64,000 nt of DNA. Source: Nitrospinota bacterium (lineage in GTDB: Bacteria; UBA8248). Positions within the stretch are counted from its first letter, which is position 1; each line of letters opens with the position of its first letter. Shown piece after piece: positions 2,506-64,000 of this stretch. Below the pieces are notes generated by a model that was not told the DNA's origin, ran no database searches, and worked only from the letters and a program-made list of their open reading frames with translations. The translations under genes and the position numbers were made by a program. The DNA is taken from positions 1-64,000 of the forward strand of contig JAYGFR010000031.1 of NCBI GenBank assembly GCA_046581755.1. The letters are read 5' to 3'.

Positions 2506-3464
2506 TCCGCCACCGGCTTTGGACCCTGGCGCTCGCCGCCCTGTTGGCGGCGCCGGCAAGCGCTCCGGCCGCGCCTGGAAACAAACCGCGTTTCCAGGTA
2601 AACGGCACGGCGGTCATCCTCCACAAGAACCGCGCCCGGGCCATGGACCGGGCCGTTGACGCAGGCCTCCGGAGGGCCGTCTACCAAGCCCTGCTCCAGT
2701 CCTTGGGCGAGGCCTCGATGATTCAGTTCCGGGGGCGCATCGAGGGGGCCCTCCTCAAGGAGGCCCGCCAATATGTGCAAAGCTATCGTGTGCTCGGCTA
2801 CGAGCTGGCCACCGGCTCCCGGACGGTCAAGGTCAAGCTCGAGGTGGTGGTCGATCTCTCGGCGGTGGACGAGGCGGTTCGTGCGCTCCAGCTGGCCAAG
2901 GTGGAAAAAGGAGAAGCCCGGCTCCTCTTCCTGATCGAGGAGCAGATCATTCGCTCCGGATTGGGGGGCCGGAAAACCACCACCCGCCTAGGACCGGACA
3001 AAATCGGCACCGCCGAGCGACGGATGATGTACGCCTTTGCCCGAATAGGCTACACACCCGTGAACCCCCGGGGCCAGCGCGAGCCCGCCCGGCCCGGCCA
3101 GATTCACGCCGCCATCAGCGGCGACGTGGACGCGGCGCAGGCGCTGGGCAGCCTCTACGGCTGTCCGTTCGTCATCACCGCCATGGCCACCGTCGAGCGC
3201 GAGCGCGGAGGGGCGGTGGTCAGCCTGGCCAGCGCCCGCGTGATCCGCACCGAGGACGGCGCGGTGATCGCCATCCGCTCGCGGCAGGTCCGCTACCGGC
3301 GCGCACGGGGGAGGCGCGGCTACAGGAACGCCCTAGCCTCGGCCAGCAGCCGTCTGGCGCGTTCGCTGATCCCGGAGATCCGGCGGGTGTTTCCCCCTCC
3401 GCCGCGCCCGGCGAGCCGGGGAAGCCGGCGCCGCCGCAGGAGAGCCCCCCGGAGGAGACAATGA
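2502..3464 (+). CDS. Secreted hypothetical protein (FlgT-N-like N-terminal domain possible)
   Basis: ATG at 2502 overlaps the rluB stop (ATGA). Signal peptide MIRHRLWTLALAALLAAPASA. Confidence 0.65.
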   Translation: MIRHRLWTLALAALLAAPASAPAAPGNKPRFQVNGTAVILHKNRARAMDRAVDAGLRRAVYQALLQSLGEASMIQFRGRIEGALLKEARQYVQSYRVLGYELATGSRTVKVKLEVVVDLSAVDEAVRALQLAKVEKGEARLLFLIEEQIIRSGLGGRKTTTRLGPDKIGTAERRMMYAFARIGYTPVNPRGQREPARPGQIHAAISGDVDAAQALGSLYGCPFVITAMATVERERGGAVVSLASARVIRTEDGAVIAIRSRQVRYRRARGRRGYRNALASASSRLARSLIPEIRRVFPPPPRPASRGSRRRRRRAPRRRQ

Positions 3465-20925: not shown

Positions 20926-21242
20926 CTTAATATAAAAGCGCTACCCCCAGCCGGGGTCACCCGGCCCCTCCTCGAATCGGACCATCTGGTACACGCGCCG
21001 GTGCCCCTACACCGCCCTGCCCCGGCGGGAAATTCATTCATCCCATCTCCCCCGCCGGGGTGTTGCCCGCCGGGGTCTTGGAAAAGCATCCTCCATTCTT
21101 CTTCCCCTTGGCCATTTATTTCCATACCCGCACTCAAGCTCCCACCACCACACTCCCCTTGCACCACTCCTCCCAGCCACCACACCTCCCCGAACGCACC
21201 GTCCCGCAGCCGGCAGGTTCAAATTTCCCGGTTTTCGCCCCC

Positions 21243-21286
21243 TTGACGCACATAAAAATTATATATATATTGTATATACTTTTTAT
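21243..21286 (+). promoter_or_regulatory. mazEF promoter with palindromic operator
   Basis: TTGACG-N17-TATATT. 14-bp inverted repeat (13/14 match) at 21252-21265 and 21273-21286. Confidence 0.75.
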
Positions 21287-21288
21287 TT

Positions 21289-21546
21289 ATGGGGATACTT
21301 GCCGTGGCCACCCAGATTGGAAAGTGGGGAAACAGCTTGGCCGTCAGGATTCCATCCGCCCTGGCGGAGCAATTCGGCTTGAAGGAAGGCTCTCCGGTGG
21401 AGATCATTACCGACGACCGGGGGCTCCTGGTCCGGAAGCCCGGCTACCGGCTGGAGGATCTCCTCGCGGGCATCACCCCCGAAAACCTGCCCCAAGAGCC
21501 TTCTCCCGGCCCGGCCGTGGGAGGTACGGACGGGGGAGGCGGATGA
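21289..21546 (+). CDS. mazE: AbrB/MazE antitoxin
   Basis: KWGNSLAVRIP and YRLEDLLAGITPENL motifs. Confidence 0.9.
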   Translation: MGILAVATQIGKWGNSLAVRIPSALAEQFGLKEGSPVEIITDDRGLLVRKPGYRLEDLLAGITPENLPQEPSPGPAVGGTDGGGG

Positions 21547-21869
21547 GATCCGGTCTCGTCCCGGATCGCGGCGACATCCTCTTCCTGGATGGGGGCGCCG
21601 GACAGCGCGGCCGGGCCCCGGCTCTCATCGTCTCGCCCCGGGCCTACAACCGCGCCACCGGCCTTGCGCTCGCCTGTCCCATTATTCAAACCCCCGGGGG
21701 CTATCCGTTCGAGGTGCTCCTCCCCGGCAACCTGGGCATCGCCGGAGCGGTCCTCGCCGACCGGCCCCAAAGCCTCGACTGGCGCTCCCGCCGCCCCGAA
21801 TTCGCCGCCCACGCCCCCAAGGCCGTCCTCGAGGAAATCGCCGCGAAGATAGCCATCTTGCTTGAGTGA
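21543..21869 (+). CDS. mazF: PemK/MazF family toxin (divergent active site)
   Basis: ATG 21543 overlaps the mazE stop. VPDRGDI, PALIVSPRAYN, GYPFEV and SLDWRSR motifs. Confidence 0.88.
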   Translation: MRSGLVPDRGDILFLDGGAGQRGRAPALIVSPRAYNRATGLALACPIIQTPGGYPFEVLLPGNLGIAGAVLADRPQSLDWRSRRPEFAAHAPKAVLEEIAAKIAILLE

Positions 21870-21979: not shown

Positions 21980-22522
21980 CTAGATACTAATCACCTTCCC
22001 GTTGAGCTTGATCTCGCTTTTGAGCGGGACGGCGGCCTGGACCATGGCTTCGGCGAAACACCCCTGCTTGGCGTTTTTGATGAGGGCGAGGACGCGCTCC
22101 TCGGGGGCGTCGGATTCGACGGTGAAGTACGTCCGGGTTTCGAGGCATTCGGCTTTCACGGTGCCCCTCAGGACGGAGCCGGAGAGAAGGTAGTCCATCT
22201 CGACGCGGACCTTGCTGCTCTTGTATTCGATTTTCATCATGCTCGCGTACCGCGAGAGTTGGGTGAGCAGTCAGAAGCCGACTCCCATGCAGATGTAGGT
22301 GAGGGGCTGGGGGTGCTCGTCCTTTCCGCCCAGATCGGCGGGCTCGTCGCACATGACCTCGAAGTGGCGGTGTCGGCCGACCTTGAGCTGGGAGCCCGGG
22401 GGCGCCTCGGTGTCGGCGAACTGCTTGACCAGAAGGCCCTGCCGGGGGAGCTCGGGTTTGTCGATCACCCGCTCGCCGGGGGCGGTGCTCATGTCGCGGT
22501 GGAGGAGGGGCTTATCGTTCAT
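21980..22522 (-). CDS. OsmC-like selenoprotein, paralog 1 (Sec84), 180 aa
   Basis: CDEP..GG.D..PQPLTYICMGVGF-TGA(22271-22273)-LLTQLSRYA continues in frame into track ORF 21980..22240, which carries a second Cys in NAKQGCF. Confidence 0.87.
22242..22256 (-). promoter_or_regulatory. Candidate SECIS hairpin (OsmC-like 1)
   Basis: CTCGCG-GTA-CGCGAG at +15 to +29 after the TGA. Confidence 0.7.
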
Positions 22523-61833: not shown

Positions 61834-62388
61834 TTATCCTGAAATCCCTTCGAGCTCCAAGGGCTCGCCGTTCAGTTCGATTTCACTTTTGAGCGGGACG
61901 GATGACTGGATCATCCGCTCGGCGTAGCAACCCTGCTTGGCGTTCCGGATAAGCAGAGCGATCTTCTCGGGCGGGGCACCGCTTTCCACCCGGAAAATCG
62001 TTCGCGTCTCTGTGCACCCGGACTCGACCGTCCCCTTCAATACCGAACCACGCAAAAAATAGTCCATCTCCACCCGACAACTCGCCTTGGTGATCTCGAT
62101 TTTCATCATGTGCGCGTACCGCGCCAGCTGGGTGAGCAGTCAGAAACCCACCCCCATGCAGATATAGGTGAGAGGCTGGGGATAGCAATCCTGCCCCCCG
62201 ATTCGGGGCGGCTCATCGCAAAACACCTCGAACTTCTCCTTCCGCCCCACCTTGATCTGGCCGTCGCCGCTCCACTCGGTCTCCGCCCATTGGTAGGAAA
62301 CCGTCCCTTGGGGCGGAAGCTCGGGCTTGTCGATGAGCCGCTCCCCGAGAACGGCACTGAGCTCTGTCGTCACTATCGGTTTTTCCAT
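61834..62388 (-). CDS. OsmC-like selenoprotein, paralog 2 (Sec83), 184 aa
   Basis: PQPLTYICMGVGF-TGA(62140-62142)-LLTQLARYA continues in frame into track ORF 61834..62109 (NAKQGCY). Confidence 0.87.
62112..62124 (-). promoter_or_regulatory. Candidate SECIS hairpin (OsmC-like 2)
   Basis: GCGCG-GTA-CGCGC at +16 to +28 after the TGA. Confidence 0.7.
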
Positions 62389-62668: not shown

Positions 62669-64000
62669 ATGGCCTCGACCATTCGGGACGACATTCGAAA
62701 TTTCGCGATCATCGCCCATGTGGACCACGGCAAAACCACACTCGTGGATTCCATGCTCTGGCAGACCGGAATCTTCCGCGAGGGCCAGGTGGTCGCCAGC
62801 CGGGTCCTCGATTCGATGGACCTTGAGCGTGAAAAAGGCATCACCATCATGGCGAAAAATTGCGCCGTTAAATACAAGGGCATCACCCTCAACATCGTCG
62901 ATACACCCGGCCACGCGGATTTCGGCGGCGAGGTCGAGCGGGTGCTCTCTTTGGTGGACGGCGCCCTGCTCCTGGTGGACGCCTCCGAGGGGCCGCTTCC
63001 GCAGACCCGCTTCGTGGTCAGCAAGGCGCTCGAGCGCAACCTCCCCTTCGTCCTTATCATCAACAAGGTGGACCGCTCGGACGCGCGCCCCGAGGAGGTT
63101 TTGAACGAAGTGTACGACCTGTTCATCGACCTGGAAGCCACCGAGGATCAACTTGAGTTCCCCGTCCTTTACGCTATCGCCAAGGAGGGCCGCACGGGCA
63201 CATCGCCCGAAGCTCTCTCGGACAACCTCGAACCCCTGTTCGATGCCCTGTTAAAAACCATTCCCCCGCCCACATTCAATGAAGGAGAGCCACTCCAGCT
63301 TCTCGTAGCCCAGCTCGAATACGACAACTACGTCGGACGCCTCGCCATCGGCCGGGTGTGGAACGGGGAGATTCGAGCGAGGGAAAAGTGCATTCTGATC
63401 GGCGCAAAAGGCGAGAACGCCACCGCCGAGATCACCCTCCTCTACGGCTACGAAGGGCTTCTGCGGAAAGAAATTTCAAAAGCGCGGGCCGGCGATATTG
63501 TCGCCGTCGCCGGCTTCGATAAAATCGGAATCGGGGATACCATTGCCGACCCCGAAAATCCGAAACCGCTTCCGCCCATCGTCCTCGATGAGCCGACCAT
63601 CACCATGATCTTCCGGGTGAACGATTCACCCTTCGCGGGCCGGAGCGGTCGATTTCTCACCTCGCGCCAGATTCGAACCCGCCTGTTTCAGGAATCGCTC
63701 AACAACCCGGCCATCGTGGTCGAGGAAACCGACTCCTCAGACACCTTCCGCCTGTCGGGCCGGGGCTCCCTCCAGCTGGCCATTCTCATCGAACAACTCC
63801 GGCGCGATAGCTTCGAAATTATCGTCGGCCCGCCAGAGGTCATTACGCGCTCCGAAAACGGCAAAAAACTCGAACCCGTCGAGAACGTCGTCATCGATCT
63901 GCCCGAGGAATATATCGGCGCGGTCACCCAAAAGCTCGGCGAGCGCAAAGGCAAGATGACCCAGATGGTCAACCACGGAAAGGGCCGCGCCCGCCTCGAG
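62669..64000 (+). CDS. typA: Translational GTPase TypA/BipA (partial, runs off the window)
   Basis: [46 protein letters not shown] and NDSPFAG. Open to the window end. Confidence 0.95.

Follow-up and report, generated by a model that had tools for sequence, protein, structure and literature searches.

Two genes in the window, by which we mean the whole 64,000-nt stretch of DNA analysed here, encode OsmC-like proteins that are interrupted at the same place by an in-frame TGA. They raise the question of whether this codon is read as selenocysteine (Sec), whether the hairpin behind it is maintained as an RNA structure, and what such a protein might do. The features concerned, all on the minus strand, are as follows.

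61834..62388 (-): paralog 2, OsmC-related selenoprotein gene, 184 aa with TGA taken as Sec; U83, second conserved cysteine C154
62140..62142 (-): putative Sec codon of paralog 2, in-frame TGA at codon 83, the first (peroxidatic-type) Cys position, UxxT motif
62112..62124 (-): SECIS-like hairpin of paralog 2, GCGCG-GUA-CGCGC, +16 to +28 after TGA, 5 bp, loop G at +21
61927..61929 (-): Cys154 codon of paralog 2, putative resolving Cys, Cys in 118 of the 118 TGA homologs covering the site
21980..22522 (-): paralog 1, OsmC-related selenoprotein gene, 180 aa (U84)
22271..22273 (-): putative Sec codon of paralog 1, in-frame TGA at codon 84
22242..22256 (-): SECIS-like hairpin of paralog 1, CUCGCG-GUA-CGCGAG, +15 to +29, 6 bp

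The reading frame of paralog 2 runs from 62388 to 61834 on the minus strand over 184 codons, with the TGA at codon 83 as its sole interruption. A sequence-only reading of this DNA had claimed that a diverged paralog with the same TGA context lies 40 kb away, and we found this to be correct: the two TGAs are 39,869 nt apart, the proteins share 61% identity, and PQPLTYICMGVGF-TGA-LLTQL does not differ between them. The codons 3' of the TGA are CTG CTC ACC CAA CTC TCG CGG TAC GCG AGC in paralog 1 and CTG CTC ACC CAG CTG GCG CGG TAC GCG CAC in paralog 2. That reading had also argued against a nonsense mutation or a sequencing error, which our data support. The contigs of DNA runs X3 and X7 (from two different studies) that span the paralog 2 TGA contain no other letter there, and therefore the codon is not an assembly or sequencing error; it is also unchanged in run X19. 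Near-identical DNA is present in marine, vent and seep metagenomes, at least 18 runs holding at least half the words. The RNA runs X19 and X20 yielded short contigs of the gene, including one of 180 nt that spans the TGA and the hairpin. These contigs, at shares of 0.20 and 0.16, do not demonstrate transcription and were set aside as evidence for it.

Both proteins belong to a known family. With U read as C, the NCBIfam model NF041052, 'OsmC-related (seleno)protein' (OsmC_like_Se; curated cut-off 95 bits), scored paralog 2 at 168.3 bits and paralog 1 at 162.2 bits, the matches covering model positions 13/14-144; at the family level, nothing sets the two paralogs apart from that family. This model also accepts Cys forms, as all six full-length Cys-form proteins tested passed. 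The Pfam OsmC domain (PF02566) likewise matched both paralogs (47.2 bits for paralog 2; cut-off 27.5). The TGA column corresponds to the Cys of a GFCLLTQ motif in 16 full-length database homologs and aligns to a Cys in PDB 3cje, which would place Sec of the window proteins in U-L-L-T, a UxxT motif; close homologs carry the NCBI name 'Nitrospinaceae bacterium'. The AlphaFold2 model has the OsmC fold (pLDDT 92.1), and its best Foldseek matches are all OsmC/Ohr-fold chains, with 2onf and 1vla at the top. An 'OsmC-like protein' selenoprotein family with UxxT (COG1765/PF02566) was described from the Sargasso Sea by Zhang, Fomenko and Gladyshev in 2005 (PMC1088965) and, judging from the available text, appears again in reviews of 2022 and 2026 (PMC9312934, PMC13188914). 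By description, that family resembles the window paralogs in its OsmC domain, its Sec in UxxT and its marine source, and the window gene has the defining combination of an OsmC domain and a UxxT Sec aligned to Cys in homologs. The Figure 3 legend of the 2005 paper gives a predicted SECIS element for one OsmC-like member; as far as the available text of that paper goes, the element was predicted for a single sequence, without a covariation test. The literature searched, which lay mostly outside subscription journals, yielded no covariation test of an OsmC-like SECIS, no mention of paralog expansion, no paper naming NF041052 and, among the titles listed, none on bacterial SECIS covariation. Thus the family is an NCBI-curated one that has been in selenoprotein catalogues since 2005 and not a new kind of system, and the window gene is a new member of it, one of six copies in this genome.

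The genome contains what defines a bacterial selenoprotein host: selA and selB (contig C136), a tRNA-Sec(UCA) (C264) and selD (C268), which has an in-frame TGA of its own; the profile matches of selA, selB and selD are over the cut-off. That the TGA is instead a true stop, in a pseudogene, a split gene or an assembly error, or is reassigned genome-wide is almost inconceivable: although public gene calls cut such genes at the TGA (P0006, P0020, P0023) and the copy on contig C381 has a one-base frameshift, the same codon recurs across 120 distinct genes, most of which stay open downstream of it for another 96-113 codons, independent runs agree on it, a stop would by the structural model cut the catalytic helix, codon state follows selA in five tested genomes of another phylum, and TGA is a normal stop elsewhere in this genome, in fact the commonest ordinary one (296 of 746 long codon-biased ORFs), which excludes genome-wide reassignment.

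We then asked what directs this decoding. The hairpin CGCG-GTA-CGCG that had been reported in both copies is indeed present, as CGCGGTACGCG, at 62123-62113 and 22254-22244. The sequence-only reading had rested its case for covariation on the +16/+28 pair, where paralog 1 has T-A and paralog 2 has G-C, with the amino acid altered on both sides (TCG>GCG, S>A; AGC>CAC, S>H). The codon changes are real, but this swap is weak evidence of covariation, as it amounts to one event, is non-synonymous on both sides and is accompanied by loss of the neighbouring pair in paralog 2. This neighbour, +15/+29, is a C-G pair in paralog 1 and an unpaired G.A in paralog 2; the loss, and four further TGA copies in the genome, had been omitted from that reading.

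The geometry of the hairpin agrees at every point with a published bacterial SECIS model, as given in the available text of PMC13188914: a loop of 3 nt (model, 3-9), a stem of 5-6 bp (4-16), a G at the first loop place (model, in the first two), 20 nt from UGA to loop (16-37) and a minimum free energy of -7.8 to -9.2 kcal/mol (at most -7.5). It differs from that model in lacking a conserved stable lower stem. In the whole 64,000-nt window, no Rfam family reached its gathering score. Single-sequence folding performed no better than chance against 200 dinucleotide shuffles (z = 0.24 and -0.77) and was discarded as evidence, and in a 60-nt folding window the lowest-energy fold of paralog 2 breaks the hairpin. 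The case for the hairpin is therefore one of conservation.

To this end, we aligned 120 distinct TGA genes, drawn from the window and 172 loci (30 from a family search of the phylum, 60 regions picked for diversity from its listed rows, 31 metagenome loci, the own-genome copies and three genes from another phylum), a set that is weighted to one family. Pairing is near universal at +16/+28 (115/120; GC 100, AT 7, TA 5, GT 3), +17/+27 (118/120; CG 97, GC 12, AT 8, TG 1), +18/+26 and +19/+25 (119/120 each) and +20/+24 (120/120), and the loop starts with G-T in 119 of the 120. Support from +15/+29 is weak: it pairs in 93/120, but +15 changes 27 times on the tree. A conserved lower stem was rejected, with +13/+31 pairing in 4/120 and +14/+30 in 11/120, and the apparent pairing of +12/+32 in 120/120 was not counted, +32 being the invariant T of a Met, Ile or Leu codon. 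When the stems were reduced to 53 distinct sequences, 92.5% of cells paired and each of the six pairs showed at least one double change, although the three inner pairs showed just one or two each. None of 500 shuffles reached any of five measures, in a control that ignores relatedness. The covariation score, 0.383 in register, did not exceed 0.121 when the partners were slid by 1-3 columns, and RNAalifold returned the same helix unprompted.

One possible explanation for these patterns is that Sec is real, whereas the covariation of the stem is a by-product of protein constraint, acting on residues i and i+4 of one helix, together with shared ancestry. The outer pair invites such a view. +16 and +28 are the first bases in the codons for residues 89 and 93, which lie four apart on the predicted helix H72-94, and the T-A state is a single clade of five rows and hence one event, with A-T forming a second double change in a separate clade of seven. 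Because both of its sides are non-synonymous and lie on one helix, this pair does not tell RNA pairing apart from a fit between side chains. Sources other than structure can, moreover, produce covariation in coding alignments (PMC11234323, which in its available text treats covariation within codons). By contrast, +17/+27 can separate the two, because +27 is the wobble position of an Ala codon, present in 117/120. This is the decisive pair, and it is the same in both window paralogs. The codons that contain +17 and +27 occur as GCG..GCG (88), GGG..GCC (11), AAG/GAG..GCT (8) and AGG..GCC (1). On trees built with the stem codons masked (119 of the 120 TGA rows, without one row that was too short; by a quick method and by FastTree, with many forks left unresolved), +17 and +27 change six and seven times and their joint state eight times, so that about five changes coincide, and the Ala wobble follows +17 in several separate clades.

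A constraint on the protein could not freeze synonymous sites in this way. The wobble sites of the stem change two, one and seven times on the tree versus 19-43 times at 17 flanking wobbles; the Arg codon in the stem is CGG in 117 of 117 CGN codons, and codon +6 has a wobble G in 109/111. Five Watson-Crick pairs with a GT loop occur in 109/120 genes, compared with 1.7% after synonymous recoding with the genes' own codon usage. In AT-rich loci (35-42% GC), 13 of 14 keep GCG CGG TAC, and CGG accounts for just 3 of the 67 Arg codons elsewhere in them. The sole AT-rich exception, L172 (G044:C15), has an alternative, register-shifted stem of 7 bp with the loop G one base nearer the TGA. Protein constraint as the source of the covariation is thus largely refuted, and we regard it as very improbable. 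The compensatory changes in the hairpin are real, and the earlier proposal of selection on RNA structure is supported by the five core pairs, conserved in 115-120 of the 120 homologs and covarying, and by the tracking of the wobble.

Loss of the stem in Cys-codon homologs had been proposed as the complementary check, and the two close Cys-codon genes with DNA, L075/L076 (G051) and L078 (G082), both on long branches of the tree, do not form it. The search for Cys-codon DNA returned one locus among 20 pattern matches in genome contigs; among 401 genomes of that genome's class four were over the cut-off, and among 401 of its phylum eight. A plasmid search gave distant matches only (six records, ~30% identity), and the other 32 non-TGA rows are distant OsmC proteins, which were left out as controls. 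Neither G051 nor G082, both draft genomes, had a selA match or a selB over the cut-off, and the three TGA-bearing genomes of that other phylum (G700, G729, G539) have selA over the cut-off. L076 nests among the TGA genes on a long branch of unsure placement, which would be consistent with replacement of Sec by Cys and later loss of the stem through decay. At the protein level, where codons are not seen, 11 of 16 Cys-form homologs cannot encode a 5-bp GU-loop hairpin under any codon choice, versus 5 of the 120 TGA genes. Covariation among UGA homologs is therefore joined by loss among Cys homologs, the Cys side comprising two genes and 16 proteins. A distant Cys-codon OsmC paralog, L011 (G000:C167), has GAG CGG TGC GCC at the stem position, by chance or as a decayed element. 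Together with the open frame, the family membership and the Sec machinery of the genome, these alignments make it very probable that the in-frame UGA is decoded as Sec under the direction of the conserved in-ORF hairpin, a likely bacterial SECIS. By the established SelB mechanism, SelB-GTP with Sec-tRNA would bind the G-first loop 20 nt downstream and insert Sec at UGA83.

The six genome copies with the TGA at the same place are the two window paralogs plus single copies on contigs C202, C226, C358 and C381. The last of these (L010, G000:C381) has its frameshift about six codons before the TGA and is a pseudogene or an assembly error. The family is over the cut-off in 48 of 51 genomes of the phylum and is expanded there, with 2-17 matches per genome at E<=0.001, weaker OsmC relatives counted in. 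Each of the 150 matches listed, of 343 in the family search of the phylum genomes, contains exactly one TGA. The pattern G-F-TGA-x-x-T-Q gave 155 matches in 43 of the 51 genomes, and its G-F-TGC/TGT/TGG-x-x-T-Q version had no match in the 51. selA is present in 49/51; the two genomes without a match have completeness values of 67% and 79%. According to the available text of the BSepDB paper (PMC13326102), the ten genomes with the most selenoprotein genes include three of UBA8248 (GTDB), each with 48-54 of them; 'OsmC' is absent from the main text and one supplement. The window genome probably belongs to the same lineage.

Scanning the genome for a TGA followed by such a hairpin, as a positive control, gave 14 matches: four OsmC-like copies and ten others. 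Of nine of the ten that were examined, seven are similar to families in which Sec forms occur, and the other two appear to be chance matches. The seven are two UGSC proteins (one over the cut-off), three Uxx-star glutaredoxins and two AhpD-like proteins, mostly below the cut-off.

L173, L175, L177, L178, L179, L180 and L181, on G000 contigs C20, C75, C89, C163, C337, C351 and C369: seven other likely selenoprotein genes

In these seven, the stem ends in a triloop, GUA or GUU, that lies 17-23 nt downstream of the TGA. The shared triloop stem suggests one lineage-wide SECIS shape.

The surroundings of the two paralogs differ, and the following genes lie next to them.

62669-64000 (+): typA/bipA, divergent from paralog 2, running off the window end
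61813-60920 (-): metallo-beta-lactamase-fold hydrolase, downstream of paralog 2; no resistance family over the cut-off
60768-59863 (-): PAC2-family gene, downstream of paralog 2
21060-21869 (+): ORF whose C-terminal 100 residues contain a MazF/PemK-type toxin domain, convergent with paralog 1; true start probably later

Paralog 1 follows an amidase, and the other copies adjoin unrelated enzymes and transporters, mostly catabolic. No common neighbour or partner emerged from the 79 of 94 candidate neighbour ORFs scanned, in a set whose ORF picking was often in the wrong frame, including that of the largest cluster. The varied neighbourhoods give no substrate or partner. Some relatives are arranged in tandem. 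L160 (G048:C46), from the same genus as the window genome, has a 377-codon frame with two whole tandem OsmC-like domains; its TGAs, at locus positions 3420 and 2847 on the minus strand, are 573 nt apart with a hairpin behind each, and it is likely to be a two-Sec single-chain form. The public protein P0006 (eight cluster members) is the stretch between these TGAs. This fusion was seen in one of 42 family genomes. In L014 (G011:C177) and L016 (G010:C69), two in-frame tandem copies are split by a hairpin-less TGA stop and a short linker; these are probably two genes, and possibly a step towards or away from fusion.

To place the protein functionally, we compared it with Ohr/OsmC peroxidases. These are dimers with the first redox residue on a central helix and a resolving Cys (available text of PMC5962072 and PMC5384416), and in Xylella Ohr the catalytic residues are Cys61, Cys125, Arg19 and Glu51 (PMC5962072). 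The window family has the same fold, a first redox residue that likewise lies on the central helix and an invariant second Cys; U83 and C154 are 71 residues apart, compared with 64 in Xylella Ohr and a range of ~60-70 that marks such enzymes. It differs in having Sec in place of the peroxidatic Cys and an N-terminal extension of ~35 residues. The site of the catalytic Glu (position 73, 10 before the first Cys, as set by offset from XfOhr rather than by structural superposition) holds Leu in 88 and Met in 31 of 119, and no Arg is conserved at 39-43, the Ohr site. D58, E59, K46 and R90 are conserved and R62 partly so; judged from sequence, Arg62, in loop 3, the Arg loop of OsmC, is present in 87/119 and Lys46 in 101/119. 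Because the catalytic Glu is absent and the Ohr site lacks a conserved Arg, the protein falls by its residues in the 'Ohr-like' group, and not in Ohr or OsmC proper.

On the basis of the fold, the protein may act as a homodimeric selenol/thiol oxidoreductase. Sec83 would attack the oxidant, and Cys154 would resolve the product by forming a Se-S bond, to be re-reduced by a dithiol donor. In the absence of the Ohr Glu, Sec's own reactivity, or the conserved D58/E59/K46/R90, would replace the triad; we propose that the selenolate itself makes the triad less necessary. An organic hydroperoxide would be the most likely substrate and the enzyme a Sec/Cys hydroperoxide reductase, an assignment to which we give roughly an even chance. 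A strong competitor, which we rate a little below even, is that the protein has Sec but is no peroxidase, acting instead as a thiol/selenol-disulfide or sulfur-transfer catalyst for varied metabolic enzymes. This would explain the many paralogs, six copies here and up to 11 matches of the G-F-TGA-x-x-T-Q pattern in a relative, and would be consistent with neighbours that are mostly catabolic enzymes and transporters, with the Ohr/OsmC Glu and Arg not being found, and with the nearest structures, 3cje, 2onf and 1vla, being uncharacterised 'Ohr-like' proteins. Against this, Ohr/OsmC peroxidases have a matching pair of redox residues at a similar spacing, and no partner is conserved in the neighbourhoods. 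Among 'Ohr-like' proteins, the available text of Meireles 2017 (PMC5384416) reports no peroxidase activity for one, in which another study saw some, and the literature searched, part of it as partial text, included no biochemical study of the OsmC-like selenoprotein family.

A broader, tentative proposal, which we consider possible though doubtful, is that in this lineage a triad-less OsmC selenoenzyme has diversified into some six paralogs with specialised roles, including a single chain with two Sec domains, in which Sec would replace the Arg-Glu activation of Ohr and support chemistry other than plain peroxide removal. In the same proposal, the 5-bp GUA-loop SECIS, covarying at synonymous sites and even steering amino-acid choice, would be a natural allelic series for a minimal SelB-binding element. 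For annotation, standard gene callers cut these genes at the UGA, leaving fragments without names, which hides a redox family with many copies in a marine lineage. The hairpin also offers a clean example, checked against phylogeny, of an in-ORF bacterial SECIS that covaries and in which a synonymous wobble follows its partner base, and its natural variants could serve to determine what SelB recognises.
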